IMG/VR virus record: IMGVR_UViG_3300035703_000003
Source of the DNA: a virus
Taxonomy: Duplodnaviria; Heunggongvirae; Uroviricota; Caudoviricetes
DNA length: 64,000 nucleotides
Reading direction: 5' to 3' (one strand)
Position numbers and translations under genes: made by a program. How positions within the stretch are numbered: position 1 is the first letter of the stretch; each line of letters starts with the position of its first letter. The notes beneath the pieces were generated by a model. The model saw nothing but the letters and a program-made list of their open reading frames with translations. It was not told where the DNA came from and did no database searches. This document shows positions 2,966-22,654 of the stretch, piece after piece.

Positions 2966-3040
<75 letters not shown>

Positions 3041-3124
3041 AATGCCTACGCCCGAAAGCGTAGGGTGCTGGTCCTCTGTGTTCTTATCTTGGGATCACAG
3101 CGGGGGTGTTAAACTTATACAAGT

Positions 3125-3637: not shown

Positions 3638-3741
3638 AGGGATAGTATCATCTTCTAAGTGTTTTTTGTTAAAATGAAAAACTACATCTTTACAAGCATA
3701 TTCAATCTACGACATTTTATTCTCCTAATTGTTCGTATAGT

Positions 3742-3816
3742 TGGTGCGCTCTACGGGTAACGATCCCGTCTACTAAGGGTTAGAATCCTCTGACAATCCA
3801 TCTTGTCCAAGAGCGC
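3742..3816 (-). ncRNA. Atypical tRNA-like element (T-loop ATCGTTA; anticodon arm ambiguous, CUA or UCU)
   Basis: CCA encoded, acceptor GCGCTCT/AGAGCGC pairs perfectly, D-arm GACA-AGATGGAT-TGTC, T-stem ACGGG/CCCGT. The T-loop is non-canonical and the anticodon stem has two mismatches whichever register is used. Confidence 0.4.
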
Positions 3817-3822
3817 AAATAA

Positions 3823-3896
3823 TGGCGAGGGTGCAGAGAGTCGAACTCTGGCTTGCGGTTTTGGAGACCGCCGTGCTACCATAACACTTCACCGAC
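3823..3896 (-). tRNA. tRNA-Trp-like (anticodon CCA); acceptor stem has two mismatches
   Basis: T-arm CAGAG-TTCGACT-CTCTG, anticodon stem GCGGT/ACCGC with loop CTCCAAA, D-arm GTGT-TATGGTA-GCAC. Acceptor is GTCGGTG vs CACCCTC (T.T and C.C at pairs 2 and 3). Confidence 0.5.
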
Positions 3897-3902
3897 ATAA
3901 AT

Positions 3903-3978
3903 TTGGAGCGGGCGAAGGGGATCGAACCCTCGACAATCTGCTTGGAAGGCAGGAGCTCTACCGCTGAGCTACACCCGC
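3903..3978 (-). tRNA. tRNA-Gly (anticodon TCC)
   Basis: Acceptor GCGGGTG/CGCCCGC, D-arm GCTCAGCGGTAGAGC, anticodon loop CTTCCAA, T-arm GAGGG-TTCGATC-CCCTT, CCA encoded. Confidence 0.7.
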
Positions 3979-4272
3979 ATTGAATCTCTATATAAACCGG
4001 TTACTATCATCCGGAGTTACTATTTCGTTGCAACAGATTAGTTTTAGACGTTAAACGACACTCCATGTGGATTTTGTTTCGGTAACCACTCAACCATATC
4101 CCCAACTTCTCTGACCCCGGAATGCACGTCGCAGGCAGCTGGCCCTTTTCGCTAGGTCTAAACTAGTTTACTTCAGTAGTCTTGTTTGGCAGTTGCAACA
4201 AACGGTCCCGCTTACCGAAAGTAGTAGACCGCTTTAGCAGTCTTGTTGTCGTTGCTCAACACTACAATTTAT

Positions 4273-4349
4273 TGGTCCGAGTAGCAGGATTTGAACCCAC
4301 GACATCCTGGTCCCAAACCAGGCGCTCTACCAAACTGAGCTACACTCGG
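4273..4349 (-). tRNA. tRNA-Pro (anticodon TGG)
   Basis: Acceptor CCGAGTG/TACTCGG, D-arm GCTCAGTTTGGTAGAGC, anticodon stem CCTGG/CCAGG with loop TTTGGGA, T-loop TTCAAAT, CCA encoded. Confidence 0.75.
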
Positions 4350-4357
4350 ATACATTT

Positions 4358-4436
4358 TGGTCTGGGTGAAAGGATTTGAACCTTCGACCTCTCGCTTCCA
4401 AGGCGAGCACTCTAACACAGGCTGAGCTACACCCAG
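4358..4436 (-). tRNA. tRNA, anticodon TGG (second Pro-type copy)
   Basis: Acceptor CACCCAG/CTGGGTG, anticodon stem CTCGC/GCGAG with loop CTTGGAA, T-loop TTCAAAT, CCA encoded. Confidence 0.65.
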
Positions 4437-4443
4437 ATATTAT

Positions 4444-4519
4444 TGGCTGGGAAGGTAGGATTCGAACCTACAACCAACGGATTCAAAGTCCGCTACTCTA
4501 CCAATTGAGCTACTTCCCA
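4444..4519 (-). tRNA. tRNA-Gln (anticodon TTG)
   Basis: Acceptor TGGGAAG/CTTCCCA, D-arm GCTCAATTGGTAGAGT, anticodon stem GCGGA/TCCGT with loop CTTTGAA, T-arm GTAGG-TTCGAAT-CCTAC, CCA encoded. Confidence 0.75.
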
Positions 4520-4527
4520 TCAACCTT

Positions 4528-4604
4528 TGGTGCGGATGGAGGGACTCGAACCCCCAACATCTGCGTTCTAAGCGCAGCGACTCTACCAATTGGCCTACAT
4601 CCGC
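4528..4604 (-). tRNA. Class-I-shaped tRNA with anticodon TAG (Leu codon CUA), short variable arm
   Basis: Acceptor GCGGATG/CATCCGC, discriminator A, D-region GGCCAATTGGTAGAGT, anticodon stem CTGCG/CGCAG with loop CTTAGAA, 5-nt variable loop, CCA encoded. Confidence 0.6.
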
Positions 4605-4610
4605 ATAATT

Positions 4611-4694
4611 TGGAGGTCGGTGCGTGAATCGAACACGCTACTTTTCAGTGCTATGGATTTGCAATCCAACCCCTTACCATCCGGGCCACCGACC
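4611..4694 (-). tRNA. tRNA (84 nt, long variable region); anticodon loop probably TTGCAAA (GCA), assignment uncertain
   Basis: Acceptor GGTCGGT/ACCGACC pairs perfectly, T-arm GCGTG-TTCGATT-CACGC, CCA encoded. Internal arms could not be folded unambiguously. Confidence 0.45.
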
Positions 4695-4702
4695 GTTGTA
4701 TT

Positions 4703-4777
4703 TGGTGCTGGTAGAGAGAATCGAACTCCCAATCTACTCATTACAAGTGAGTTGCCTTACCATTGGGCCATACCAGC
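4703..4777 (-). tRNA. tRNA-Thr (anticodon TGT)
   Basis: Acceptor GCTGGTA/TACCAGC, anticodon stem ACTCA/TGAGT with loop CTTGTAA, T-arm GGGAG-TTCGATT-CTCTC, CCA encoded. Confidence 0.75.
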
Positions 4778-5011
4778 GATATATTCGTATACTTCTTCGT
4801 ATGTCTTAAACATACGTGTTCCGTGTTTGCTAACAACTCTTACAGAGGAGCCAAAGCACTGAACTAAACCAAAACCAGGAAACCTACCGTTGCCTGGTCG
4901 TCTGTTATTCCATCTATTACGTTTACGCACAGGTTGTGTATAAACGTGTTCTATTCCTAATAGTTCTCCACATCTTGTGTAAAACTGTTCTTTTTCTTCT
5001 GATGTTTTCAT
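4757..5011 (-). CDS. Small basic hypothetical protein inside the tRNA cluster (3' end overlaps tRNA-Thr)
   Basis: 84-aa ORF rich in R/K/N (RKRNRWNNRRPGNGRF). Its context is otherwise non-coding, so the call is tentative. Confidence 0.3.
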   Translation of the reverse strand: MKTSEEKEQFYTRCGELLGIEHVYTQPVRKRNRWNNRRPGNGRFPGFGLVQCFGSSVRVVSKHGTRMFKTYEEVYEYIAGMAQW

Positions 5012-5062
5012 ATTGTCCTCTCACATATCTTTACGGTTTTAATGGCTTAACCGAAAACCTAT

Positions 5063-5137
5063 TGGAGCGGGTAACGGGATTCGAACCCGTGACCTGGTGC
5101 TTGGCAAGCAGCCGCTCTACCCCTGAGCTACACCCGC
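5063..5137 (-). tRNA. tRNA-Gly (anticodon GCC)
   Basis: Acceptor GCGGGTG/TACCCGC, D-arm GCTCAGGGGTAGAGC, anticodon loop TTGCCAA (one C.C in the stem), T-arm ACGGG-TTCGAAT-CCCGT, CCA encoded. Confidence 0.65.
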
Positions 5138-5144
5138 ATTTATT

Positions 5145-5220
5145 TGGTGGACCCTAGCGGGATCGAACCGCTGACCTACGGCTTGCAAAACCGTCGCTCT
5201 CCCAACTGAGCTAAGAGCCC
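5145..5220 (-). tRNA. tRNA-Ala (anticodon TGC)
   Basis: Acceptor GGGCTCT/AGGGTCC (two G-U), D-arm GCTCAGTTGGGAGAGC, anticodon stem ACGGT/GCCGT with loop TTTGCAA, T-arm AGCGG-TTCGATC-CCGCT, CCA encoded. Confidence 0.7.
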
Positions 5221-5659
5221 GTATTCTATTTATAAACTACGTTTAGAAGATACACATAAACTTAGCATAACGCTCTCCGGACTAAGCCTCTGTTAGTATA
5301 TATGTGTATCGTCAAAACGTAATGTTTTGCCTAGCTTGAGATTACAGCGTAGGACGGGAGCCTTTGAGCATTACCGTTGGCCTTGCGAGCCACGTTCTCT
5401 CGTTATCCACAGAAGCCTGTTACGGTCATCCTGTATCTCCCAATGGTGCCTTTTTTGGAGAGTGGCGTTTCTCTCGTCGCACGTTGCTACTCGTCCTTCT
5501 ATCCTTCGTCTGCCTTGCGAGCAGTTCAGAGTCGCTAAACCCTTACGCTATCTTTCCGAACAACTACATCAGCCTTGCGAGCATCCGTAGACCACATTCT
5601 CTTTCGAGTGTGGCATTAACCACCTTTCACAACGTACCGGGACAGTCTTTCGCTTTTGT

Positions 5660-5730
5660 TTCAATAGTAGGAGTTGAACCTACAATCCATCGTTCTGAAT
5701 ACGATTGCATTACCGTTATGCAATATTGCG
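5660..5730 (-). ncRNA. tRNA-like element with anticodon loop ATTCAGA (anticodon UCA, would read UGA); acceptor weak, no CCA
   Basis: T-arm GTAGG-TTCAACT-CCTAC, 5-nt variable, anticodon stem ATCGT/ACGAT perfect, D-arm GCAT-AACGGTA-ATGC. Only 5 of 7 acceptor pairs form. Confidence 0.35.
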
Positions 5731-6181
5731 AACCTACTTCGATGTGCTGTCCCAGTTGCACCATATCTTGTTAGATACAGTATACAACACACCGACTGTC
5801 TTTTGCCTTGCGGGCTACTCAACGTCACTTCAAGTATCCGGGGCCTAACCCTTCCACTCTTGTAATGCTACTACGCCTTTCCTTGCGGGGTCAGACAGTG
5901 TAGCTACCTGTTAGTATTCTCCATTCGTTGCTTTGGCTGTATGCTGTTCGGGCGCCAACCCTCTTACTACTCACCGACCGGCTCTGTAGCTATCCTTTCG
6001 GACAACACACGCAACTTACTGGATACCGCCTTTCTACGGACGGGACTTGCTTTCGCATTGCGAGTCAAGTCTAACCCAGGCTTGTATAGCTGGACCATTG
6101 CTGGCGCAAGTTTATAGGAAACCTTGCTTTGGGTGCATTGCTGCACTTACCCTTAAGTTGGACGCTATACCGCCCATATAA

Positions 6182-6292
6182 ACTGTGTTTAAAACTATAC
6201 ATTGTGGAATCGAACCACCGAGCCGACCACAAGGTCGACCTGTTCCATAACATCGGCGTGGCCTACGCCTTATGTATAGTTTAAAACACAGT
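6182..6292 (-). ncRNA. Structured element: 22-bp perfect inverted repeat enclosing about 65 nt with a T-arm-like hairpin and two further hairpins
   Basis: ACTGTGTTTAAAACTATACAT (6182-6203) is the exact reverse complement of 6270-6291. The interior contains GTGG-AATCGAA-CCAC, CGACC-ACAA-GGTCG and GGCGT-GGCCT-ACGCC. Confidence 0.5.
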
Positions 6293-6346
6293 CATTACTA
6301 AATTTTCAAAGAGCGTATAAGCAACTTGTTTGCTGCTTATGTTCTT

Positions 6347-6375
6347 AATATAGTATGTGTTGCTGTCATTGTCAA
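6347..6375 (-). promoter_or_regulatory. Sigma70-type promoter TTGACA-N17-TATATT, minus strand, reading into the ncRNA locus
   Basis: Reverse complement reads TTGACAatgacagcaacacatacTATATT. It belongs to the repeated promoter-leader element 6301-6380. Confidence 0.6.
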
Positions 6376-6575
6376 CACCTTTTTTTATCTTTTTTTATTT
6401 AATTACTTGAGCCTGTTGCCACAACATCAACAGCATTATCTACAAATTTTCGGCCGTGTAGTTATGGACTTGCGTCCTTGGGGTAAGTCATTACAGTTAC
6501 TTGGAAGGATGCATTTCCTTTGTTACTACAGCCGCTAAACCGTAGCACCTTTCACTTACTGACACTCAAGTATTT

Positions 6576-6649
6576 TGGCGACCCTACGGGGACTCGAACC
6601 CCGTTCACCAGGTAGACAGCCTAGTGTAATACCCATATACCATAGGGCC
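6576..6649 (-). tRNA. tRNA-Asp (anticodon GTC)
   Basis: Acceptor GGCCCTA/TAGGGTC, anticodon stem CTAGG/CCTGG with loop CTGTCTA, T-arm CGGGG-TTCGAGT-CCCCG, CCA encoded. Confidence 0.65.
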
Positions 6650-6655
6650 AATTTA

Positions 6656-6746
6656 TGGCGGACACTCAGGGATTCGAACCCTGGGACGCCTTTCGACGCC
6701 GTCGGTTTTCAAGACCGGTGCAATAATCCATCTCTGCCAAGTGTCC
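6656..6746 (-). tRNA. tRNA-Ser (anticodon TGA), long variable arm
   Basis: Acceptor GGACACT/AGTGTCC, anticodon loop CTTGAAA, variable-arm hairpin GGCGTC-GAAA-GGCGTC, T-arm CAGGG-TTCGAAT-CCCTG, CCA encoded. Confidence 0.7.
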
Positions 6747-6749
6747 GTA

Positions 6750-6835
6750 TTGCTTTAGACTGGGCTGTTTGCAGCTTTAACCCGGCTGGTTACGGGTGCG
6801 TTCCTCACAAGGGCCGATTATATCACAGTCTAAAC
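6750..6835. ncRNA. Short inverted-repeat-bounded element (9-bp IR, TTTAGACTG/CAGTCTAAA), possible small RNA
   Basis: IR flanks about 63 nt lying between two tRNA genes. No tRNA fold was found. Confidence 0.25.
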
Positions 6836-6836
6836 T

Positions 6837-6912
6837 TGGTTGCGTTGGGTGGGACTCGAACCCACGATCTTTTGGTTATGAGCCAAACGAGATGCCGCTT
6901 CTCTACCCCGCA
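6837..6912 (-). tRNA. tRNA with anticodon CAT (Met, fMet or Ile2 type); acceptor has two G.A mismatches
   Basis: T-arm GTGGG-TTCGAGT-CCCAC, anticodon stem TTTGG/CCAAA with loop CTCATAA, D-arm GAGA-AGCGGCA-TCTC. Acceptor is TGCGGGG vs CAACGCA. Confidence 0.5.
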
Positions 6913-6927
6913 ATAGTCCTATTATAA

Positions 6928-7015
6928 TGGCGGAGCGACTGGGAGTCGAACCCAGTGAGGGATTGCTCCCTCTACAGATTAGCAATCTGCTGCATTACCA
7001 TCCTGCCCCCGCTCC
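6928..7015 (-). tRNA. tRNA-Ser (anticodon GCT), long variable arm
   Basis: Acceptor GGAGCGG/TCGCTCC, anticodon stem GCAGA/TCTGT with loop TTGCTAA, variable hairpin GAGGGA-GCAA-TCCCTC, T-arm CTGGG-TTCGACT-CCCAG, CCA encoded. Confidence 0.7.
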
Positions 7016-7022
7016 GTATATT

Positions 7023-7098
7023 TGGCTCCCTGACGTGGGCTCGAACCACGGACCCGATGATTAACAGTCATCTGCTCTACCAACTGAGCTATCAGGAA
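7023..7098 (-). tRNA. tRNA-Asn (anticodon GTT)
   Basis: Acceptor TTCCTGA/TCAGGGA, D-arm GCTCAGTTGGTAGAGC, anticodon stem GATGA/TCATC with loop CTGTTAA, T-arm CGTGG-TTCGAGC-CCACG, CCA encoded. Confidence 0.75.
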
Positions 7099-7329
7099 AC
7101 ACTATGCTTTTGGCTCTACTCAGCGTCATCCAGAGCGATTTAACTAGAGGGGTGCTTTTCTCCAGTACCGTTATTCTTGTGGCTTACGGAGTTATCCTCC
7201 TGCACTAGTTTATTCTATAAATACACGATGATAAAAAAGACTTGGTCTATTATATTACCGTGTATTATTGTTGTCAGCTTTTTTCTAGCTGTAAGCAATC
7301 TTTTTACCACATGGCATAATCATCAAATG

Positions 7330-7697
7330 CTGTTGGAAATACTTCACAGCACTGAATAATTCAATTGCTCGTTCTACTTACACATACACCCCAGCATTTC
7401 TGCGTAGTCCGCAAAGTGTTGGGTGGCCTACCCTCATTCACAGGATGTATGTGAAAATAGAATCGTTGTCTCTACTTACAAGTATGTTAGTCTGTCTTTG
7501 AAACAGCGAGCGCCCGTCGGCTTTTTACATAGGTCAACCCAACCACGCACGGAGTCGAACCGTGCTACTCCCATTTCTAACATACATGTAAGTAGAGATT
7601 TGATAATGTATGTTGGTTGCATACATCGTCTACTTACAATCCCTATCATCGCTTTCGCTAAGGAATGTGATAAGCTATAATAGCTTACCGTAATACG
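7330..7697 (-). ncRNA. Second structured non-coding locus downstream of the duplicated promoter-leader element (T-arm-like CACGG-TTCGACT-CCGTG, nested hairpins)
   Basis: No credible ORF. Inverted repeats are TGTAAGTAGAG/CTCTACTTACA and ATGTATG...CATACAT. It lies downstream of the 7698-7777 element, which is homologous to 6301-6380. Confidence 0.35.
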
Positions 7698-7777
7698 TCT
7701 AAATTGTCAAAGAGCGTGTAAACAACTTCTTGCTTACTGTGTTAACTTAGCGTCTTGTTTTTGCTTTGTCAACAACT
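7698..7777 (-). repeat. Promoter-leader repeat, copy 2 (homologous to 6301-6380)
   Basis: Shared blocks are CAAAGAGCGT(A/G)TAA(G/A)CAACTT...TTGCT...GTCAACA. Reverse complement gives TTGACA-N17-TAAGTT. Confidence 0.5.
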
Positions 7778-7836
7778 TTTTTCTTTTTTGTTTGAGTGCT
7801 TCAATCTTTGTTACAAGTTTCTGCGTCCCTTACTAG

Positions 7837-7868
7837 TTATATATAGTGTATGATGTCTTGCCTGTCAA
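7837..7868 (-). promoter_or_regulatory. Sigma70-type promoter TTGACA-N17/18-TATATA (minus strand)
   Basis: Reverse complement reads TTGACAggcaagacatcatacacTATATA and shares the ...ACACTATAT core with the other early promoters. Confidence 0.5.
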
Positions 7869-7875
7869 GTATTAT

Positions 7876-7935
7876 TTTGTCTTTTTTTTTGCCATTAAAA
7901 AAGCCCCGCAGCTTTCGCTTGGGGCCTTGGTGTTC
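7876..7935 (-). terminator. Terminator-like GC hairpin with flanking T/A runs
   Basis: GCCCCGCAGCTTTCGCTTGGGGC hairpin. On the minus strand it is followed by TTTTTTAATGGCAAAAAAAAA. Confidence 0.4.
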
Positions 7936-8294
7936 GAACTTTATAAGTTGTTCAGCTACCTCGGCCCGCCTGCACGGAATCGACACTAGGATTGCCCCCT
8001 AGTGACCATGTATTCTGTGCTGTGGTTCCGCATGTAATCATTGAACTGTTTATTCCTTATATAAGTTTATTTATCATCTGAGATAAAATTATCTTACACT
8101 TTTATTTATCATCTTGAAAATATTTAGTCTGCGTCCGGCAACTGCAAAGCCTGAGAAAGCGTTTATCGGTTTTACCAGCAGTGTTAGGACTTCTTACTTC
8201 GAATTATCTTATCGGTCCATTTTTACGCCTTAAGTAGAGAATCTCAATTATAAACTACAAGACGCAGACTAAAACTTTGGTGCCCTAAGGCGTG

Positions 8295-8735
8295 TTACAT
8301 TCCTAGTTTATACGAGCTGTTGCTCACAGTAAACGATTGCTTCCAAGACCATTCGTCTAGAACAAGTTGGTTAAACACATCGTCTTCAAGTTCGATTACG
8401 TCTTCAACACTTAGTTCAAGCATACGAGCTGCACGATTGTAATCACTTTCGTAACTACGTGGTGCAGAAGGGATACCTTTAATCTCTTTAATTTTTTCTA
8501 GATCACCTGTGTTTGCTAGTTTTGCATTTTCTTTTGTGATCTTAACAGTAAGTGTTTTGTAATCGTTAACTGCTTCATCGTATTCAGCAATGTGCTTAAT
8601 CTTGTTTTGACGAACAATCATTAGGAGCTCGTCTTTTTTCATCTTTACACTACGCATAGCGTTTCTCCCATTCATACGCATATTAAACTTCCTTAAAAGA
8701 ATATTTGGTGCCCCCGGTCGGACTCGAACCGACAC
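8295..8735 (-). CDS. Hypothetical protein
   Basis: 146-aa ORF in the minus-strand gene series, ending next to a tRNA. Confidence 0.55.
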   Translation of the reverse strand: MSVRVRPGAPNILLRKFNMRMNGRNAMRSVKMKKDELLMIVRQNKIKHIAEYDEAVNDYKTLTVKITKENAKLANTGDLEKIKEIKGIPSAPRSYESDYNRAARMLELSVEDVIELEDDVFNQLVLDEWSWKQSFTVSNSSYKLGM

Positions 8736-8782
8736 TATGCGGATTTTGAATCCGCCGACTCTACCAATTGGCCTACAGAGGC
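8706..8782 (-). tRNA. Class-I-shaped tRNA with anticodon CAA (Leu codon UUG)
   Basis: Same scaffold as 4528..4604 and 10426..10502: acceptor 3' strand CGGGGGC, discriminator A, D-region GGCCAATTGGTAGAGT, T-arm GTCGG-TTCGAGT-CCGAC. Anticodon stem GCGGA/TCCGC with loop TTCAAAA, 5-nt variable loop. Confidence 0.6.
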
Positions 8783-9069
8783 GATATTAAAACAGAGAGG
8801 AAAGAGTGAGTAATAAAGTTCTAGCAAAGTGCATGTAGCGTGGTATACAGACCTACTTTTGCAAAAAACAAATCGCAATCTACAATGCTTATATTTCCGA
8901 TTATCAACATGCAGTGTCAATTAAGACGAATATAATAAAATCGGAACACATAGCTGGAGACCATAAACGATCATGTTATGCAAGTAACGCTTGCCCGCCT
9001 CTATTCTCTTTTCTCTTTCCTACTCTGGGTAGTTTCGGGCAAGTTGCCTTGCCCTGGGTCTACCAAAAC

Positions 9070-9669
9070 TTATTCTACAATACCTGCACGAGCAAGGAAA
9101 TGCTCTGCTTCATCGTCAAGCACAATTGTAGTGCTTACGTTAAGCTCTAGCAACGAGTCTTGCAGTGCAGTCTTTACTCGCTTTAGACGAGCGAGTTCGG
9201 CTTTGAATTCTTCGATCTTCTCTTTATCGAAGATGTTAGTAGTGACAGTGTCGTCACCGAAACGACCGTAAACGTCTGCTTTGTCACGACCTTTAATCTT
9301 GCCTAGCTTACCGACAAGAACATCGTTAGCTACTGCAGGCTCTAGCTTGCTTAGACGCCCGTATAGCTGCATGTCTTTGTCTAGCATTGCTACATCAGCT
9401 AGCAAGCTATCAATACCGGAAGCGGCGTTAGCATGGGCTACTGCCTTGCGAATTTCGTAAAGAACGCCTAGCAGCTTGCCACGAGTAGCAAGATGTGTCT
9501 CAAAGCGGTTAGTAGCTTCGGACACCTTTTCGCTAGGCTTTTCGAATTCGTTAACCGAAACTTCTGTGCCTAGATCTAGTGTGCCTAGCATTTCATTAAT
9601 TGCGTGTTGTAGTGCGTTTGCTTTACGAAGTGAGATTTCCATTACTTTGTCCTTTGTGTTCGTTTTCAA
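9070..9669 (-). CDS. Hypothetical protein
   Basis: 199-aa ORF with overlapping genes upstream and downstream, consistent with operonic packing. Confidence 0.55.
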   Translation of the reverse strand: MKTNTKDKVMEISLRKANALQHAINEMLGTLDLGTEVSVNEFEKPSEKVSEATNRFETHLATRGKLLGVLYEIRKAVAHANAASGIDSLLADVAMLDKDMQLYGRLSKLEPAVANDVLVGKLGKIKGRDKADVYGRFGDDTVTTNIFDKEKIEEFKAELARLKRVKTALQDSLLELNVSTTIVLDDEAEHFLARAGIVE

Positions 9670-10246
9670 TTTTCTTTGCGATTACTTTGTGTAGACCTGG
9701 ATTAATAACTAGCATTTGTGTTACAACGTTTTCACGAATATAGTTTCTAATGTATGAAGTGTCAAGATTTGATTTGTCTTCAACCCAACTTACATTTTTT
9801 CGTTTACACCAATCAACAAACTCGTGCTTTCTGTTTAACCTAAACGGCCTAATAACGTTTTCATTTTGGTAAGGAATAATTTTACCCTCACCGTGCATAC
9901 TTGACCAAATCCACGTTTCTACACAATCATCCAAATGATGACAAGTGATAACAGGCTTTTGCCAGGCATTTAAAACTTTATAACGTTCGTTCCTCCAGTG
10001 TTCTTCTTGGCTTACGCCCTTAGGAACAACAGTGTTGATATACGAAGTGTATAGTTTTAGTTTAGTATCGTCTGCATACTGCAAAAGAAACTTGTGTGCT
10101 TGTTCACTTGTTTCTGTGCCGTGATGCACAAATTGTAGAGTAATACGATGATTTCTTTTTAGAAAATCAACAATAGCCATACTATCAACGCCGCCACTGC
10201 AAGCAATTACAACGTCTCTGGGTAGTTTGCTTTGGACTTTAATCAT
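9623..10246 (-). CDS. tilS: TilS-like tRNA(Ile)-lysidine synthetase catalytic domain (PP-loop ATPase)
   Basis: PP-loop SGGVDS near the N-terminus. Blocks FVHHGT, CHHLDDCVETW and WVEDKSNLDTSYIRNYIR resemble the TilS N-domain motifs (HVHHGL, QHLDDQCETF, WIEDESNQDDSYDRNFLR) as I recall them. It lies immediately downstream of two CAU tRNAs. Confidence 0.7.
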   Translation of the reverse strand: MIKVQSKLPRDVVIACSGGVDSMAIVDFLKRNHRITLQFVHHGTETSEQAHKFLLQYADDTKLKLYTSYINTVVPKGVSQEEHWRNERYKVLNAWQKPVITCHHLDDCVETWIWSSMHGEGKIIPYQNENVIRPFRLNRKHEFVDWCKRKNVSWVEDKSNLDTSYIRNYIRENVVTQMLVINPGLHKVIAKKIENEHKGQSNGNLTS

Positions 10247-10262
10247 CGCATTACTCTAGTTT

Positions 10263-10338
10263 GGTGGAAGGACTGGGACTCGAACCCAGATAGTTACGTT
10301 TATGAGACGTATGCATTCACCAATTATACTATCCTTCC
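10263..10338 (-). tRNA. tRNA with anticodon CAT (copy A; Met, fMet or Ile2)
   Basis: Acceptor GGAAGGA/TCCTTCC perfect, anticodon stem TACGT/ACGTA with loop CTCATAA, T-arm CTGGG-TTCGAGT-CCCAG, CCA encoded. Confidence 0.7.
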
Positions 10339-10342
10339 GATT

Positions 10343-10419
10343 TGGTAGGGGATACCGGACTTGAACCGATAACCTGCCGATTATGAGTCGGACGCTCTAA
10401 CCAATTGAGCTAATCCCCC
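10343..10419 (-). tRNA. tRNA with anticodon CAT (copy B; Met, fMet or Ile2)
   Basis: Acceptor GGGGGAT/ATCCCCT, D-arm GCTCAATTGGTTAGAGC, anticodon loop CTCATAA, T-arm ATCGG-TTCAAGT-CCGGT, CCA encoded. Confidence 0.7.
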
Positions 10420-10425
10420 TAACTT

Positions 10426-10502
10426 TGGTGCCCCCGGTCGGACTCGAACCGACACTACGCAGATTTTAAGTCTGCTGACTCTACCTATTGGCCTACAAGG
10501 GC
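10426..10502 (-). tRNA. Class-I-shaped tRNA with anticodon TAA (Leu codon UUA)
   Basis: Same scaffold as 8706..8782 (acceptor 3' strand CGGGGGC, D-region GGCCAATAGGTAGAGT, identical T-arm). Anticodon stem GCAGA/TCTGC with loop CTTAAAA, 5-nt variable loop. Confidence 0.6.
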
Positions 10503-10509
10503 GTAGTTC

Positions 10510-10592
10510 TGGTGCGGGCACCCGGACTCGAACCGGGACGCATTGAGCAAGAGATTTTAAGTCTCTCGTGGCTACCATTTCACCATGCCCGC
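10510..10592 (-). tRNA. tRNA-Leu (anticodon TAA), class II with long variable arm
   Basis: Acceptor GCGGGCA/TGCCCGC, anticodon stem AGAGA/TCTCT with loop CTTAAAA, about 11-nt variable region, T-arm CCCGG-TTCGAGT-CCGGG, CCA encoded. Confidence 0.65.
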
Positions 10593-10605
10593 ATAAGTTG
10601 TTTTT

Positions 10606-10682
<77 letters not shown>

Positions 10683-10991: not shown

Positions 10992-11385
10992 TTTGTATCT
11001 CTTGTTACAGTATTATTTATATCTTAATTTTCACGGTTTGTCAATATTATTCTTCTGTAACAGTAACTTTTTTATCTTTTGTTTCAGGATCGAACGTCAT
11101 ACTTTGTACAATTGCCTTTACATCATTTTTATCTGTTGCAACTACTACAACTTCATTATCAACACGAATGTAATATGCCATTAGTTTGACTCCTGACCGT
11201 AAGGGATGAACTCAACAGTCCACTTACCATCAGACCAAACGTTAAGGTACTTCATCCAGTATTTGTGCATACCGTATTTGTTTTTGTGAAGCCGAGTGAG
11301 GTAGCTTAGTGTGCCGCTGTGAATCATCTTGTTCATCCTCTGTTTTCTACTCTATATACATAGCACGTAGGTTGAGTGCTGTCAA

Positions 11386-11601
11386 TCAAAAAGGTTCTGG
11401 TTCTTCCACCTGGACGTATTCTTCTTCGGTCAGTCCTGCGATGTAGCTTTCGATGGTGTCCGAAAGGTGCATTTCGATGTCTTCCTGTAGGCTTTCCAGT
11501 GTGTCTTTGGGGAACTCAGGCAGTCCCGCTCTTAGTGTGTTCATAGCACTTTGGACCGCAAGGTCTACCAGAGTGTTGAGTCGTTGTTCAGAAACTACCA
11601 T
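11386..11601 (-). CDS. Small acidic hypothetical protein
   Basis: 71-aa ORF, acidic (EEEYVQVEEPEPF). Confidence 0.4.
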   Translation of the reverse strand: MVVSEQRLNTLVDLAVQSAMNTLRAGLPEFPKDTLESLQEDIEMHLSDTIESYIAGLTEEEYVQVEEPEPF

Positions 11602-11616
11602 TTTGGTTATCCTTTT

Positions 11617-11991
11617 CTACCATTTAATTCCAAGAGCCGCAAGTTCAGCTGGCGAAAGTTTGCTGATAGCGGTCAGCCGCAGATCAGCCTTACGCTTTTC
11701 GGCAGCTTCACGAGCAAGTCGCACAGCATCTTCTTTCTTATGACGTTTCCACCATGCTTCAACGTGTCCACGCTTTACACCAGCTTCTTTCCAGTCGATC
11801 CGTGCCAGCAGCCCATCAAGACCGCCAACAATCACACCTTCTTCGGCAGCAGTGAAGACGCCGCAAAGTGTAGCTTCGAAAGATTCGATATCCATCCCGT
11901 GGCGGGTTTCTTTACGAGGGGCATCCCAATCATCAGATCTGCAAGGCATTTTGTATCTCCTTATTTCGTATAGACGAAGTGCTTGTTCCAC
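11617..11991 (-). CDS. Hypothetical protein
   Basis: 124-aa ORF. Confidence 0.45.
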   Translation of the reverse strand: MEQALRLYEIRRYKMPCRSDDWDAPRKETRHGMDIESFEATLCGVFTAAEEGVIVGGLDGLLARIDWKEAGVKRGHVEAWWKRHKKEDAVRLAREAAEKRKADLRLTAISKLSPAELAALGIKW

Positions 11992-12374
11992 CGACCAACT
12001 TTGATGTCAGTGTAGAACGCAATGTGGAAGTAATCAGTCATGCTGTCGCTCTCGTCGAACCAGTCCGTGCCACGCATTGCAGCAAGAAGTTCGTTAAACA
12101 TCGAGCGGATCTTACCTTTGTAGTGGTCGTTGATCCAGTAAGTGTTAACACTGTAATGACCGTCGACAGGGTAAAAACGCTCATTGCGGCGTTCAGCAAC
12201 TTCGAGGTTAGACTTGTTAGCTTCACCAATAAGGTCAAGTTTGCCTTCAGTGATCGTCACAACAAGCGAGGAATGGTTATCAACACTGATCGAGCCTTTC
12301 ATGCCATACTTTTTCAGCACAGCTTTGATGGCCGGAGCCTTAGCACGTTTCATCTCTTGCGACACATAAGCCAT
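11961..12374 (-). CDS. Hypothetical basic protein
   Basis: 137-aa ORF located directly downstream of the promoter at 12409-12437. Confidence 0.55.
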   Translation of the reverse strand: MAYVSQEMKRAKAPAIKAVLKKYGMKGSISVDNHSSLVVTITEGKLDLIGEANKSNLEVAERRNERFYPVDGHYSVNTYWINDHYKGKIRSMFNELLAAMRGTDWFDESDSMTDYFHIAFYTDIKVGRWNKHFVYTK

Positions 12375-12408
12375 TTTTGAAGTCCTCTTCTTTACTGCCT
12401 ACATTTAT

Positions 12409-12437
12409 AATATAGTGTAAGACGTCTTGGTTGTCAA
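12409..12437 (-). promoter_or_regulatory. Sigma70-type early promoter TTGACA-N17-TATATT with AAGACGTCTT palindrome in the spacer
   Basis: Reverse complement reads TTGACAaccaagacgtcttacacTATATT. Confidence 0.65.
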
Positions 12438-12440
12438 CCT

Positions 12441-12662
12441 TTATTTAAACTGACGATTTAGTTTCGACAACGCTCGGCGCTCTGCATTGATACGCAAGCG
12501 AACTGCACCGCGAGCTTCGTTCAACAACCAGTCCCACTCACGTTGCTTGCCTTCTGGCGTATGGTTGGCCCAACGAATCCAAAACAAGCTATCTGAATCA
12601 GGACGACGACCGTATGCTGCTTCAACTAGGTCAGCTACTTTCGAATCATTGTAAGTAAACAT
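12441..12662 (-). CDS. Small hypothetical protein
   Basis: 73-aa ORF downstream of the promoter at 12689-12717. Confidence 0.5.
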   Translation of the reverse strand: MFTYNDSKVADLVEAAYGRRPDSDSLFWIRWANHTPEGKQREWDWLLNEARGAVRLRINAERRALSKLNRQFK

Positions 12663-12688
12663 TTTTGGTCTCCTTGTTGTTACATGTA

Positions 12689-12717
12689 TAATATAGTGTA
12701 AGAGCTCTTGAATGTCA
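12689..12717 (-). promoter_or_regulatory. Sigma70-type early promoter TTGACA-N17-TATATT with AAGAGCTCTT palindrome in the spacer
   Basis: Reverse complement reads TTGACAttcaagagctcttacacTATATT. The 16-bp stretch TTCAAGAGCTCTTGAA is a perfect palindrome. Confidence 0.65.
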
Positions 12718-12725
12718 ACCGCTTT

Positions 12726-13109
12726 TCAATAAGAAATTGCACTTTCTCGCATTTTATCTCCGTAAAATTTGACACCTTTTTCCTTCACAAGATCAACAAG
12801 AACTTGTGGAGTAATATCGGCAATTTCACGGAGCATATCCTCGGTGATATCATCGTCAACGTTAATCCCCCAAATTTGTGGGAATCGTTGAGGATTAAAC
12901 CGAGCTCGCATACATAGCATATTGTATGTCGAACCGATATTGTGTGGTTCAGGTTCCCCTGACAACTTAGCTACTAAGTTTTCGTTACGCCATTCGCCGA
13001 TAGGAACAATAGATTCGATTCCGTTTGTATCCCAAGAGATAAGGAATTCTGACATGTTAGCACCAATATACTGGTTCTTCGTATTCTTCGTCGTTATCTT
13101 TTTGCTCAA
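12726..13109 (-). CDS. Hypothetical protein
   Basis: 127-aa ORF. Confidence 0.5.
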   Translation of the reverse strand: MSKKITTKNTKNQYIGANMSEFLISWDTNGIESIVPIGEWRNENLVAKLSGEPEPHNIGSTYNMLCMRARFNPQRFPQIWGINVDDDITEDMLREIADITPQVLVDLVKEKGVKFYGDKMRESAISY

Positions 13110-13331
13110 GCAGATGCCGCTCGAACTCCAAGTATTCTTCGAGTGTCATGTCCATGTTATTCTCCATTGATTTTATCACACATGCCAGTGATCGCAGCCA
13201 TTCCAGCACCTTTACCGAGTGCAAACGCATACCAGCCGCATTTGGAAAAGGTGTAGGCTGTGGTGCTAATCCCTAACAACAATACAAAGCCAAACATTGC
13301 AAAAAAAGCAAAACGGTTCATGTTGTTCTCC

Positions 13332-13631
13332 TTACACCCGGATTACGTTGATATCACGATTTTCTGCTTCGTAATCAGCATCAACTGTGCCGCTCACAAA
13401 GTAACGCCGACGAGTGCCATCGGATTCAAACCCTATCTCGGTGGCATAATTTTCTTTGGGCAAGTAAGCAAACCCACGATAGTTACCGGTTTCAAACAGC
13501 ACTGCTTCGAGCAACGAAGCAACTGCTTCACGCTCGTCTGCGTTGGTATTTTTTGCAGCAAGGAAAGTATTTGCCATCTTGAGCATCTTACCAACTTCGA
13601 TCGTCTTACGAGCAGTTTTCGGCATCGGCAT
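13332..13631 (-). CDS. Hypothetical protein
   Basis: 99-aa ORF downstream of the promoter at 13655-13683. Confidence 0.5.
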   Translation of the reverse strand: MPMPKTARKTIEVGKMLKMANTFLAAKNTNADEREAVASLLEAVLFETGNYRGFAYLPKENYATEIGFESDGTRRRYFVSGTVDADYEAENRDINVIRV

Positions 13632-13654
13632 TCTCCTCTATCGCCTACATCTTA

Positions 13655-13683
13655 TATATAGTGTAAGAGCTCTTGAATGTCAA
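13655..13683 (-). promoter_or_regulatory. Sigma70-type early promoter TTGACA-N17-TATATA with AAGAGCTCTT palindrome
   Basis: Reverse complement reads TTGACAttcaagagctcttacacTATATA. Spacer is identical to that of the 12689-12717 promoter. Confidence 0.65.
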
Positions 13684-13690
13684 TCTTTTT

Positions 13691-14143
13691 TTAGAGTTTA
13701 TCTAATCTTTTTTGGTGACGACCACCTTCAAACTGTGCAGTAAAAAATGCATCTACAATAGCATATGCTTGCTCGGCAGTTGTTTGTCTACCACCTAGAC
13801 ACAATACGTTAGCGTTATTGTGCTGTCGAGTAAGTGCTGCAGTTTCTGCGTTATAGCAAAGACCTGCCCTAATGTGACTGTATCGGTTTGCTGCAATACT
13901 AATACCAATACCTGTGCCACAGATAAGGATGCCAAATTCATTACCACCTTCAGTAATAGTTTCACATACTGCTTTTGCATAATCTGGATAATCTACACTA
14001 GCAGTGTCATGACAGCCAAAATCTTTAACGACTACAGAATATTTGTCTGTAAAAGGATCTTTACTACGCAAATATGAAACAATCGCTTGTTTAAGTTCGT
14101 ATCCGCCATGGTCACAACCAATGGCAATTTTAAAGGCTGACAT
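13691..14143 (-). CDS. rpiB: RpiB/LacAB-family sugar-phosphate isomerase (ribose-5-phosphate isomerase B-like)
   Basis: 150 aa. The N-terminus KIAIGCDHGGYELK and overall length are typical of RpiB. Confidence 0.7.
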   Translation of the reverse strand: MSAFKIAIGCDHGGYELKQAIVSYLRSKDPFTDKYSVVVKDFGCHDTASVDYPDYAKAVCETITEGGNEFGILICGTGIGISIAANRYSHIRAGLCYNAETAALTRQHNNANVLCLGGRQTTAEQAYAIVDAFFTAQFEGGRHQKRLDKL

Positions 14144-14585
14144 CTTCTAATCCTGCTGCTCTAAGTTTTACAATGTTATTGATTTGGAATTGCTTTGCAT
14201 CAAGTGCTTTAATCAAGCCCATGAACTTGTTTCGTATAAGTGCAAATTCATTCACGATATGTTGTTGGTCCACAACCTCTTGAACGCCGTCTACATATTT
14301 TTCAGCATCACGACTAGTCAATGCACGATTGTAGTGTTCGAGAAATTTCTTGTAATGTTCTGTTCGTTTTTTGCGAAGTTCGATATTCAAGTATTCTAAT
14401 ATTGCTTCAATTTCCTGCAATTGGTTAAAACGATGTTCGACTATACCTGGCATGTCACGGCTGTGCTTTTCAACATTGCCTTTAAGGCCACACTCTATAC
14501 GAGCTTGTGCTAGCTGATTTTCGTAATAATCAATTGCAGGAATAATTTGAGATATGTCCTGACGGATTTCTCTAAACCAGTTCAT
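14130..14585 (-). CDS. Hypothetical protein
   Basis: 151-aa ORF. Translationally coupled to its neighbours. Confidence 0.5.
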   Translation of the reverse strand: MNWFREIRQDISQIIPAIDYYENQLAQARIECGLKGNVEKHSRDMPGIVEHRFNQLQEIEAILEYLNIELRKKRTEHYKKFLEHYNRALTSRDAEKYVDGVQEVVDQQHIVNEFALIRNKFMGLIKALDAKQFQINNIVKLRAAGLEDVSL

Positions 14586-14588
14586 TAC

Positions 14589-14879
14589 TTACCATTTATC
14601 TTCATCTTCAGAGTCATAATCTTCATAGCTGTCGCTATCAATATATACTTCTCTCAAGACTCTGTCAAGTGTGCTATCATATCCTACCCATTCGTCTGCA
14701 GTTTCAGATAAGTCGCAAACATTCTCATTAATAATGTCTAAAAACTTTTGACATGCAGTTTCTTTTTCTTTAGGGTTTAAATATGTTTTCATTGACATCC
14801 AAATGTCAACGTATGTTTGTATTTCAGATTCGTTTAGTTTCATAGTTAGTTTAGGCCTCCAAGATGTTTTGGGTATCAT
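14589..14879 (-). CDS. Small acidic hypothetical protein
   Basis: 96-aa ORF with an acidic C-terminus (DSDSYEDYDSEDEDKW). Confidence 0.45.
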   Translation of the reverse strand: MIPKTSWRPKLTMKLNESEIQTYVDIWMSMKTYLNPKEKETACQKFLDIINENVCDLSETADEWVGYDSTLDRVLREVYIDSDSYEDYDSEDEDKW

Positions 14880-16013: not shown

Positions 16014-17039
16014 TTAGTTTGAGCCTCTAGCACGAATCGCTGCTAGAATGTCTTGTGCGCTGGGTTTAGCGTCACTAGTAGCCGGTTTTACAATCGGCGC
16101 ACTGGGCTTTGGAGCCGATTCCTCAAAAGGGATTTCGTCGTCTTCATCTGGCGTAGGTGCAGAGCGCACTGGTGGTTGTGCTACGCTCTTTGCCGCTGGC
16201 TTAGGCGCACTGTTATTTGCTGCACTATTGCTAGTGTCAATTTGAACACCCGACGGACGATAGAAGTTACCCCAACGTTCCGGATCATACAATTGTCCGT
16301 CTACACTAGCTTCAAACATTTCTTGAATAACACGAAGTTCTTCATCGTTTGGTTGCTTTGGTAGATAATCGTTAAGATTGAATAGACCGAACTTTTCAAT
16401 ACTTGCACGTTCTTCGCTATTTAGACTACGTTCACGACGAGCCCAAGTGCTAGTGCTATAGTCAGCATATTGACCTTTTTGTGACTTAGTCAACCGGAAG
16501 TCAGTGCCTGCTTCGTAATCTGTTGGGATATTTTCGAAGTCTGTATCCATAAGCGCACCTTTGATAATCTTAAAGATGCTAGGATTAATAATGAATCTGC
16601 GGATTGGATTCTCCGGAACAGATTCTTCTTGTAGGCTGTTTTCTGTTACAAAACCTTGGAACACGTAGCTCTTTTTCTTCCAGTATTTGCGACCAAGTTC
16701 TTCTAGGTTAGGATCTTTAAACCACCCACGAACTTCGCTAAGAACTGGGCAACTTCCTACAGGACCCCACATTTCATTACATGGAACGTTTACTGTAACC
16801 TTACGGCTATCAGGTTGACCTTTAACTCCGTTAAAGTCAATACGGATCATTTGACGTTCACGCCAAAAATAAGTGTTTGATGCGTCTCCATCTGGAAGGA
16901 AACGAATTACACTTGTTGTATTTTCTGGGATATTCCAAAATGGGAAGATAGCGTTATCGCTTGTTCCACCTGTAGATGCTCCTGATGAGCGAGCTTCTTG
17001 TTCTTTTAGTTTTGCACGAATTTCTGCCAATGTAGCCAT
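16014..17039 (-). CDS. ssDNA-binding protein, gp32-like
   Basis: The SVIRFLPDG block resembles T4 gp32 AVIRFLPSK. The acidic C-terminal tail (DEDDEIPFEES) is typical of gp32. Confidence 0.7.
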   Translation of the reverse strand: MATLAEIRAKLKEQEARSSGASTGGTSDNAIFPFWNIPENTTSVIRFLPDGDASNTYFWRERQMIRIDFNGVKGQPDSRKVTVNVPCNEMWGPVGSCPVLSEVRGWFKDPNLEELGRKYWKKKSYVFQGFVTENSLQEESVPENPIRRFIINPSIFKIIKGALMDTDFENIPTDYEAGTDFRLTKSQKGQYADYSTSTWARRERSLNSEERASIEKFGLFNLNDYLPKQPNDEELRVIQEMFEASVDGQLYDPERWGNFYRPSGVQIDTSNSAANNSAPKPAAKSVAQPPVRSAPTPDEDDEIPFEESAPKPSAPIVKPATSDAKPSAQDILAAIRARGSN

Positions 17040-17126
17040 AGTTGTTTCTCCTTATATGTGCCTATATTTTTTTGTGCCTAAGTATACCTCAGTGGCCAAA
17101 TACTTATTAACCACTAATGTAACGTA

Positions 17127-17140
17127 TTTTATTTATCATG
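17127..17140 (-). promoter_or_regulatory. Conserved GATGATAAATAAAA-type motif (late-promoter-like, compare T4 TATAAATA) upstream of the gp32-like gene
   Basis: This is one of four copies of TTTTATTTATCAT(C/G) on the plus strand (1233-1246, 8066-8078, 8100-8113, 17127-17140). Confidence 0.3.
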
Positions 17141-18505
17141 TCAATTGAAAAGATTATTTAAATTGTAACCGTTGAACACTTTTTTAATTTTACTTTCAAC
17201 AGTTGTAGTAATCGGATTTCTTTCAACAGATTCATTACCACCTTGCTGTAGCTTAGGCATCAGAGCTTTAATAGCATTTGCTGATTTCACTAGCATAGCA
17301 CGGTCTGTAATATTGTCAACCAAATCACCCATTCTTGCTAGGGTAACTGATAATTCGTCGTCGTCTTTGCCACCGGCAATAATACCGCTTAAGTATTCAA
17401 AGACAGCACCGAGTTGTTGTTGATATGGTGCTTTTGCTAAGGTAGCATTATTCATTGGATTTTCAGGATCTGATTTAATATCAACTCCTGCTTTTAAGTT
17501 TACTTTAGATATTCTATTAACTAAACCTGTTAAATTGTTCAATGTTTCTTGTGCAAAATCATCACGTTCACGAACTGCTTCCATTTCTTTAATAAGTGCG
17601 TTTACATATGGTAATGCACTATCAAGACCTTCGTCAAATGATCTAACGGTGAACTTATCTTTGATACTAGCAATATCATCTTCATTGATAGTTTGTTCCT
17701 CGGCGTTAAATTCTTCTGCCATACGAGCATAACCTTTGCTGCCTTTGCTTTTATTTAATTTCTCACGGACTGAATTTATACGAGATGACACTGCTTCAAT
17801 GATATCAAACGTATCTTCGCTTACTAAATTATTACGCAGGCTGTAACGCTTAAATTCTTTTAGTTGCTTTAATTCATCGCACATTTCAATAATGTGTTGT
17901 CCAAGTTCATCATATGGATTACCACCTTCTTTAACATGGCGCAGCATTGCACGGCCGCCAGCTAGATTGTTACTTGGAAACTTATAACGTTCGCCATCCG
18001 CATTTTCAATATAGATAGCACTAATGTTACGACTACGGCTTCCACGCTGTTCTTCATTAACTGCCTTTTTATGCTTGATAATGAGTTTTGCATTTTCTAA
18101 TTTTTGGTAGCTGCTTTTTGTGCTGCCATATGCTGCACCGATGGATTCTTGAACGTTCATATCTCTAACTTTCTGTGCTTGGTAATCAAAGTCTTTTGGA
18201 GTAATTTCTTTTGTAAATGTTTTTAAAGTATATTCAATAATACTTTGATTTGCTAAGGTTTTAAGTTGCTTGATAAGATCCCTGACTTCTTCCATCTGAG
18301 TGCCAGCACTTAAGCTAACTTTAATCTCACGCTTACTATCTGTTTCATCTAAGTTTACCATAGTGAAAGTATTAGGTATATAGAAACGACGAGCATCTTC
18401 TGGATCTACTGTGTTCTTTCCTTCGTCGGTAAACAGCTCTACATTAAAGCCATTACCTTTAATGATTTTAAAAATCTTTTCTGCAACTGATTCTGAACTT
18501 AGCAT
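17141..18505 (-). CDS. Hypothetical 454-aa protein
   Basis: Long ORF between the terminase and gp32-like genes. No motif recognised. Confidence 0.6.
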   Translation of the reverse strand: MLSSESVAEKIFKIIKGNGFNVELFTDEGKNTVDPEDARRFYIPNTFTMVNLDETDSKREIKVSLSAGTQMEEVRDLIKQLKTLANQSIIEYTLKTFTKEITPKDFDYQAQKVRDMNVQESIGAAYGSTKSSYQKLENAKLIIKHKKAVNEEQRGSRSRNISAIYIENADGERYKFPSNNLAGGRAMLRHVKEGGNPYDELGQHIIEMCDELKQLKEFKRYSLRNNLVSEDTFDIIEAVSSRINSVREKLNKSKGSKGYARMAEEFNAEEQTINEDDIASIKDKFTVRSFDEGLDSALPYVNALIKEMEAVRERDDFAQETLNNLTGLVNRISKVNLKAGVDIKSDPENPMNNATLAKAPYQQQLGAVFEYLSGIIAGGKDDDELSVTLARMGDLVDNITDRAMLVKSANAIKALMPKLQQGGNESVERNPITTTVESKIKKVFNGYNLNNLFN

Positions 18506-22132: not shown

Positions 22133-22654
22133 TCACGCTTTGCCTGTTTTCATACGTTCGATAACAGCATTGATTAAACTATTTCTATCTTCAAATTCTT
22201 CTGCTTGACCGTCAATAGGATCATCTTCTTTTTCTTTAAGTGCATCATTTACTTTGCGTGTGTCGAGATCAAGTTTTGCTTTACGCATTTGTAACTCGAT
22301 CATTTTTAATTTTTTATCTAACTTTGTTTGTTTAGCAGTAATAGCATTGCTCATCATTTTTCCTGCAACATCAAAAATTGCAGCGGCATTTCTGTCATCG
22401 ACGTTTTGACCTAAGTCCATCAAGTCTTTAAATGCCTTCATTGCTTCGTCTGCATACTTGTCCATATCTTTGTCTAATGTTTCTAAGTCACGAACAACAG
22501 GCAGTGCCTGATCTATCTTATCAGCCACATCTAATGTATGCTGTAGTGTCGATAAGTCGAACCCGGTTTCTTCTTCAGCAATTAGTTGATCCACTTCGTC
22601 GTCTACTTCATCATTTGGTGGTAAATTAAAAACTTCTTCTATTTTTCTTGACAT
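22133..22654 (-). CDS. Hypothetical acidic coiled-coil protein
   Basis: 173-aa ORF. Confidence 0.5.
   Translation of the reverse strand: MSRKIEEVFNLPPNDEVDDEVDQLIAEEETGFDLSTLQHTLDVADKIDQALPVVRDLETLDKDMDKYADEAMKAFKDLMDLGQNVDDRNAAAIFDVAGKMMSNAITAKQTKLDKKLKMIELQMRKAKLDLDTRKVNDALKEKEDDPIDGQAEEFEDRNSLINAVIERMKTGKA

Follow-up and report, generated by a model that had tools for sequence, protein, structure and literature searches.

Analysis of 64,000 nucleotides from the virus record IMGVR_UViG_3300035703_000003, the whole of which is called the window here, showed that three sites on the minus strand between positions 12,409 and 13,683 are repeated strong sigma70-type promoters standing before small ORFan cassettes, in a hyperplastic region that runs from uvsX, uvsY and rpiB to the gene g137; in this identification we have high confidence. 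Between its -35 and -10 hexamers each promoter carries a 10-bp palindrome, hereafter the box, which we found to be the locally perfect form of a motif, A(A/T)GA-NN-TC(T/A)T, that lies in mid-spacer across a clade of uncultured aquatic phages. The box is quite probably under selection, and it may be an operator for a dimeric DNA-binding protein.

The promoters are P13683 (13655-13683, minus strand; -35 TTGACA at 13683-13678, spacer ttcAAGAGCTCTTacac, -10 TATATA at 13660-13655), P12718 (12690-12718, minus strand; -35 at 12718-12713, spacer ttcAAGAGCTCTTacac, -10 TATATT at 12695-12690) and P12437 (12409-12437, minus strand; -35 at 12437-12432, spacer accAAGACGTCTTacac, -10 TATATT at 12414-12409). 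Their boxes are, respectively, AAGAGCTCTT at 13665-13674, centred at about -21.5, AAGAGCTCTT again at 12700-12709, and AAGACGTCTT at 12419-12428, with the centre CG instead of GC; at each site the perfect dyad is exactly 10 bp long. The pattern AAGASSTCTT matched the window three times against 0.21 expected, each time at spacer positions 4-13. Ahead of the -35 lies an A-rich stretch in which the A's at distances of 5 and 8 nt are invariant, and a Shine-Dalgarno sequence and start codon close the module at its 3' end (aaggagaccaaaaATG and agaggacttcaaaaATG are examples). No copy departs from a 17-bp spacer, and the hexamers match the consensus. Over the whole window, TTGACA-N17-TATAT(T/A) with at most one mismatch was matched 22 times against 5.6 expected, and the 11 perfect matches are without exception on the minus strand, the one that codes in the first 33 kb. 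These matches are intergenic, with a Shine-Dalgarno sequence and ATG 30-45 nt downstream. The window also holds 82 perfect 10-bp palindromes, a density at which a 17-bp spacer would include one in about 1% of cases. P13683 and P12718 share 28 identical bp between unlike flanks, so that the three sites are not independent events. The window alone therefore proves little, and the statistical support comes from relatives.

A preliminary description of this DNA had listed six minus-strand promoters of the form TTGACA-N17-TATAT(T/A), three of them with a perfect 10-bp spacer palindrome (AAGAGCTCTT twice and AAGACGTCTT once), and we recovered both the six matches and the three palindromes. The core CAAGA-SS-TCTTACAC, which it had extended to all six, is present in only three. 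Among the others, P7868 (7840-7868, minus strand), with CAAGACATCATACAC in the place of the core, keeps 3 of 5 dyad pairs and has a degenerate box, ggcAAGACATCATacac, with arms AAGA/TCAT and centre CA; P30881 (30853-30881, minus strand), with CCAAGACACTTTGCT, has in its spacer aaccaagacactttgct a resemblance to the box that is shifted and decayed, together with the common leader ATGTAGGC; and P6375 (6347-6375, minus strand), a TTGACA-N17-TATATT promoter with atgacagcaacacatac, has no box and falls outside the box class. A 16-bp palindrome, TTCAAGAGCTCTTGAA, had also been reported for two promoters; it has no match in the window and was probably produced by splicing the minus-strand reading TTCAAGAGCTCTTACAC to the plus-strand reading GTGTAAGAGCTCTTGAA. 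The early observation was real but overstated, and its interpretation is plausible, although unproven.

Relatives were collected by protein homology, giving about 110 viral contigs: a RpiB query retrieved L008-L039 (97% to 49% identity) and a g137 query L040-L117 (94% to 45%). Enrichment was assessed on loci found through proteins only, without selection on the motif, using the 17-bp spacers of TTGACA-N17-TAnnnT sites. A perfect dyad of two 4-bp arms around a 2-bp centre occurred in 30 of 231 distinct spacers, compared with 7.4 +/- 2.6 in shuffled spacers. AAGA-NN-TCTT accounted for 22 of the 30, at offset 3 in 13 spacers, offset 2 in eight and offset 0 in one; the remaining eight are at chance level, leaving AAGA-NN-TCTT as the sole enriched dyad. 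With one arm mismatch allowed, 33 of the 107 protein-ascertained loci had a box, which in these loci usually marked a third to a half of the strong promoters, and four of five in L067 and L069. Contigs that bear the box include IMGVR_UViG_3300017917_001616, 3300048121_000993 and 3300031703_000599. The marine form, aaaaagg-TTGACA-N2-A(A/T)GA-NN-TCTT-GGTGy-TATAgT, places the box one base nearer the -35 than does the window clade, and the marine contigs that bear it belong, by sheath similarity, to the same jumbo supergroup. Longer perfect palindromes with unlike outer bases were seen in L009 (GTAAGACGTCTTAC) and L049 (CCAAGACGTCTTGG). Since the spacers of promoters at conserved core-gene positions, the orthologues of P14668 and P17144 among them, are unrelated to the box, the box marks the repeated cassette class only. 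It was not found in the sampled 40-kb regions of the cultured relatives Melnitz, SCTP-2 and Atu_ph07, and the PA5oct paper reports promoters only as TTGAC/TATAATA. A separate motif-based scan of viral contigs yielded L001, a genuine relative with three copies, and six single chance matches (L002-L007); all seven, having been found by way of the motif, were kept out of the statistics.

How deep the conservation goes was gauged at the promoter immediately downstream of rpiB. There the box is kept from 97% to 52% RpiB identity with at most one arm mismatch and with the centres GC, CG, AT and CA, and about 21 of 32 RpiB loci have a positional orthologue of P13683 that carries it. Between clades, only the elements read by RNA polymerase and the box are common; elsewhere the spacers are unlike (ACAC against GGTGy), and the offset is shifted by 1 bp. 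AAGA-NN-TCTT is kept at the same spacer position in many relatives, contrary to the absence from other copies and from relatives that the preliminary description had named as speaking against its idea. The centre is self-complementary in 12 of the 22 perfect-arm spacers (binomial P 0.004 with p0 0.26, a value that is not a true probability because the lineages are related) and in 12 of 13 lineages at the rpiB-downstream promoter, which are likewise not independent. GC and CG centres alternate repeatedly, even between the near-identical L011 and L040, and GG/CC intermediates were not seen; in orthologues of P7868 the centre is CA in L009, TA in L012 and AC in L013. Arm variants are AAGA/TCAT (eight) and ATGA/TCTT (five), and the compensated form ATGA/TCAT never occurs. 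It is therefore the sequence that is conserved and not the pairing, with a centre that is free but preferentially self-complementary. The lack of compensated arm changes argues against a hairpin or cruciform function and fits the recognition of half-sites by a protein.

Folding pointed the same way. As RNA, the 10-bp palindromes have a free energy of 0.0, and the 66-nt promoter contexts gave z values of -0.2 to +0.3 relative to shuffled sequences; a stem at the orthologous promoter of another lineage reached -9.8 kcal/mol. No terminator-like site was found upstream of the three box promoters, and an Rfam search of 11000-14500 returned no family. On the strength of the folding and of the lack of compensatory changes we ruled out a hairpin or terminator. 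Other arrangements do exist in relatives. In L038 (1953-1996) and L039 (6123-6166), the -35 stands between two perfect copies of AAGACGTCTT that are 22 bp apart, and the pair could act as a tandem operator with a spacing of two helical turns or could form, as RNA, a 10-bp stem of -13.7 kcal/mol; in L027 and L029, TCTT/AAGA tetramers form the arms of a true stem-loop around the -35. Pairing extended beyond the box likewise found no support, the L067 flanks showing all four combinations (flank covariation was judged by eye), and nothing supported restriction-modification as the cause of the GANNTC hexamers (SacI, AatII, EcoRI and EcoRV sites).

Like the promoter-early stem-loop (PeSL) elements of T4-type phages (Arbiol et al. 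2010, PMC2839356; Comeau et al. 2014, PMC4122927), the promoter modules form the borders of variable cassettes and act as junctions for recombination. In the window the order is rpiB, P13683, g99, g54, g32, g109, P12718, g73, P12437, g137, g110, g71 and onward, all on the minus strand. P13683, directly 3' of the rpiB stop codon, drives a four-gene ORFan cassette (12726-13631: g99, 13332-13631; g54, 13157-13321; g32, 13057-13155; g109, 12726-13055) that is bounded by P13683 and P12718. P12718 drives the ORFan cassette g73 (12441-12662, 73 amino acids), bounded by P12718 and P12437 and present only in the window and L008, and P12437 drives g137 and the genes downstream. The conserved anchors are rpiB (13691-14143, ribose-5-phosphate isomerase B, Pfam E 6e-57) upstream of P13683 and g137 (11961-12374, phrog_10415) downstream of a box promoter, and searches with g99, g54, g109, g73 and g110 gave no Pfam or PHROG match. 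Close relatives retain the promoters. In L011, L012, L013 and L040, one chimeric promoter joins g109 to g137; its upstream flank and spacer are those of P12718, and its leader is that of P12437. L009 and L010 have an additional membrane-protein gene and promoter before g109. Marine relatives do not have the g99-g54-g32-g109 cassette between rpiB and g137; some of them (L016, L018, L020 and L033) have only one box promoter in that interval, and in others (L023, L030, L031 and L038) rpiB and g137 are parted by other cassettes, again bounded by box promoters.

Fixed arms, a tolerated centre and a fixed place within the spacer of an optimal promoter point most simply to a dimeric protein that competes with RNA polymerase, and we tentatively read the box as the binding site of such a protein, a putative operator, which on the comparative sequence evidence is a real possibility, if somewhat short of probable. 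The dyad falls within the footprint of RNA polymerase, the half-sites are conserved across relatives with the centre less constrained, and a self-complementary 4+4 motif would arise by chance only about once in 200 (~0.005). The protein would recognise a sequence-specific dyad with 4-bp arms and a 2-bp centre at about -21.5/-22.5; once bound, it would overlap the polymerase footprint on an already optimal promoter and would act as a repressor; and the repressor would co-ordinately silence the cassette promoters, as in early shut-off by a phage protein. We are more doubtful about the later steps. That the box is the operator of a clade-specific repressor turning off all cassette promoters together is conceivable but questionable, and that a phage-encoded early shut-off repressor acts at it seems rather unlikely. 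The common, dimeric regulator proposed in the preliminary description has partial support. The box is conserved, is the only enriched dyad and combines fixed arms with a varying centre, and a repressor operator is still the reading that comes most naturally; but the box is confined to one promoter class, and the 30 small window proteins scanned yielded no DNA-binding candidate.

Several observations weigh against an operator. In the close clade the arms are no more invariant than several positions that do not belong to the dyad, namely ACAC preceding the -10, GTA at the predicted start and the A's upstream. The conservation is therefore in part that of the module as a whole, whose copies gene conversion may have kept alike. 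Roughly one box copy in two is imperfect, and orthologous promoters often lose the symmetry by a single arm change. The box does not mark "the early promoters" as such: among the 14 strong promoters of the window, three carry it, or four with one arm mismatch allowed, and the class itself can be termed early by analogy only. When 30 small proteins encoded in the window, itself a small part of a jumbo genome, were compared with Pfam and PHROG, no DNA-binding domain appeared. In addition, the closest known analogue, the PeSL promoter cassettes, had been overlooked in the preliminary description, and in the light of the L027/L029 stems and the L038/L039 double copies the box could be a collapsed PeSL stem.

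Such a functionless relic, a loopless remnant of a stem-loop carried in a module of about 50 bp that is copied or homogenised by recombination or gene conversion, is unlikely in our estimation, yet several points favour it. PeSL inverted repeats occur most often between the -35 and -10, and the T4/PST stems read AGNA-loop-TCNT; stem-loops with TCTT/AAGA arms and a hairpin-forming duplicated box are found in the four lineages just named; the whole module and not the dyad alone is invariant within the close clade; and the GC/CG flips, such as that between L011 and L040, could easily come from conversion by another copy in the same genome. A neutral remnant, however, would not retain self-complementary centres or be the sole dyad enriched, and the arm sequence is kept at 52% RpiB identity, across clades in which the spacer has otherwise diverged. 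Another explanation is intrinsic to the promoter, the sequence or shape of the spacer tuning recognition by the host sigma70 holoenzyme or a phage-modified polymerase without any separate DNA-binding protein. Sigma70 does sense spacer sequence and conformation near -18 (PMC3130263), within the stretch of about -26 to -17 that the box covers, and in phage early promoter families conservation is known to reach past the hexamers (PMC2839356, PMC4122927). But the contacts of RNA polymerase are asymmetric and give no reason for a self-complementary motif or self-complementary centres, from one clade to another the box moves by 1 bp against both hexamers, and these genomes also have consensus promoters of equal strength that are free of it; we consider this explanation improbable.

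Less probable still is that the box forms the core site of a site-specific recombinase, with inverted arms around a 2-bp crossover, that mobilises promoter-bounded cassettes. It would account for box promoters at cassette boundaries, for a crossover in the g73 indel that maps between the box centre and the transcription start, and for centre dinucleotides that differ between sites, and the PeSL authors had left room for a targeted recombinase. Against it, the Pfam/PHROG scans of small window proteins found no recombinase next to the cassettes, the arms are just 4 bp, adjacent sites with GC and CG centres would be incompatible partners, and homologous recombination over the 28-50 bp repeats suffices, with uvsX and uvsY adjacent. 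Mere chance could be entertained in view of the many palindromes in 64 kb and the single 28-bp sequence that underlies two of the three sites, but it is contradicted by the enrichment, the fixed position and the conservation in relatives, and we give it almost no credence. A MerR-like activator was ruled out by the 17-bp spacer.

The box promoters share with PeSL elements a repeated module, an A-rich upstream tract, a near-consensus sigma70 promoter, an inverted repeat mostly between the -35 and -10, and a Shine-Dalgarno sequence with ATG; they likewise lie in hyperplastic regions before ORFans, with cassette indels and chimeric junctions. Five of six testable PeSL features were found, and the failing one, the stem-loop, is the reason for not filing these promoters as typical PeSLs. 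PeSL repeats are looped stem-loops and terminators with variable, lineage-specific, G/C-rich arms, whereas the box is a loopless 10-bp palindrome without folding energy or compensatory changes and with one arm sequence across clades. The explanation given for the PeSL inverted repeat between the -35 and -10 is also different from an operator (PMC2839356, PMC4122927). We found no earlier description, in the open-access literature, of a sequence-specific dyad box in the early-promoter spacer of this phage group.

Known spacer operators include the phage P22 Arc operator in Pant and the synthetic T5/A1 promoters with lacO in the spacer. As in those systems, a strong promoter holds the dyad between its -35 and -10, a place from which a dimer, once bound, shuts out RNA polymerase, and operators so placed were reportedly found by Lanzer and Bujard in 1988 to repress very efficiently. 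Unlike them, the box is known from its sequence alone, has arms of 4 bp (up to 7 bp in some relatives) and, instead of forming one regulatory switch, recurs at numerous promoters in a jumbo phage of virulent type. MerR-type promoters also have a dyad centred in the spacer, but theirs is over-long at 19-20 bp and needs distortion of the DNA, whereas here the spacer is an optimal 17 bp between consensus hexamers. To our knowledge, T4 early shut-off uses no DNA operator, and the prevailing view of T4-type and related jumbo phages is that modification or appropriation of the host polymerase silences their early promoters, and not DNA-bound repressors. As with T4 early promoters, host sigma70 polymerase would read strong phage promoters that are conserved beyond the hexamers (reviewed in PMC2988021). 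T4 shut-off involves ADP-ribosylation by Alt and ModA, and AsiA/MotA (PMC2988021); a spacer operator would be a separate mechanism, and the box promoters have no MotA box.

A conserved spacer box in one promoter class points to an unrecognised DNA-binding factor acting on mobile ORFan cassettes, the part of the genome that carries host-adaptation genes. It also draws apart the recombination-prone promoter module and the inverted repeat that this contains, which the PeSL concept had treated as one. The hypothesis lends itself to tests with synthetic DNA alone, since the promoters match the Escherichia coli consensus. Were the recombinase explanation true, the box would be no transcriptional operator but would belong to an integron-like gene-capture system in jumbo phages in which the centre dinucleotide sets partner compatibility, and the enzyme would be the "active, targeted recombinase" for which the PeSL authors had allowed.

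Some variation was seen at the promoters themselves. In the promoter downstream of rpiB in L011 (5362), L012, L013 (10459) and L040 (3227), the -35 is weakened to TTGCAA while the box, -10 and leader are kept, and these copies may be decaying or down-tuned promoters. A strong sigma70-type promoter precedes the g137 orthologue in nearly all of 80 loci, with a lineage-specific spacer and, in many lineages, inverted repeats around the -35. For example, among L043-L117, tttAGGGC-TTGACA-ttc-GCCCTaaa, ATAACCC...GGGTTAT and TAGTGG...CCACTA flank or overlap the -35 at this orthologous position, in classic PeSL layouts, and in L095/L102 (about 9930-10000) both the -10 and the transcription start are covered by an extended inverted repeat, tCCCTTCGTgTCCGT ... 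ACGGAaACGAAGGGa.

The source is an uncultured jumbo myovirus of the T4 superfamily. The window has 40% G+C and 30 transfer RNA (tRNA) genes, all on the minus strand, and encodes a tail sheath, tail tube, terminase and portal, the sheath being about 46% identical to those of PA5oct, CBB and Rak2-like jumbo myoviruses. A nucleotide search of a phage collection with the region returned no near relative, the sole match being distant and 154 bp long. Upstream of the three box promoters lie uvsX, a uvsY-like gene and rpiB; rpiB overlaps the end of the uvsY-like gene, adjoins uvsY in many aquatic relatives and is absent from L040. The tRNA block occupies 72-10682 on the minus strand, with P7868, P6375 and P1251 interspersed; P7868 stands upstream of tRNA genes, behind a GC hairpin and T-run that resemble a terminator. 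One tRNA with the anticodon TCA (5658-5730), called as a selenocysteine tRNA (tRNA-SeC), is probably opal-suppressor-like and not a true selenocysteine tRNA.

Two further promoters and several open reading frames (ORFs) deserve mention. A strong promoter at 14640-14668 (P14668, minus strand, TTGACA-N17-TATATT) lies within the coding sequence of g84, before the uvsY-like gene, and keeps its own spacer (gagt..t.agagac/a) down to the marine clade; judged from this, it is probably a real internal promoter. P17144 (TTGACA-N17-TACATT; 17081-17144, minus strand), upstream of a gene for 341 amino acids (16014-17039), is followed by a conserved leader inverted repeat, agtggttaataagtatttggccact, which reads agtgactatataagtagtcac in marine relatives and could be a conserved hairpin of the 5' untranslated region. 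Among the virion structural genes, a 110-amino-acid ORF (22654-22986, minus strand) has a TnsA-like endonuclease N-terminal domain (Pfam PF08722, E 7.5e-20). Two giant minus-strand ORFs, at 39143-47161 (2672 amino acids) and 51217-57033 (1938 amino acids), contain the recurring 10-bp palindromes TATTGCAATA, AGCAATTGCT and TGCAATTGCA, suggesting internal repeats of fibre-like proteins.

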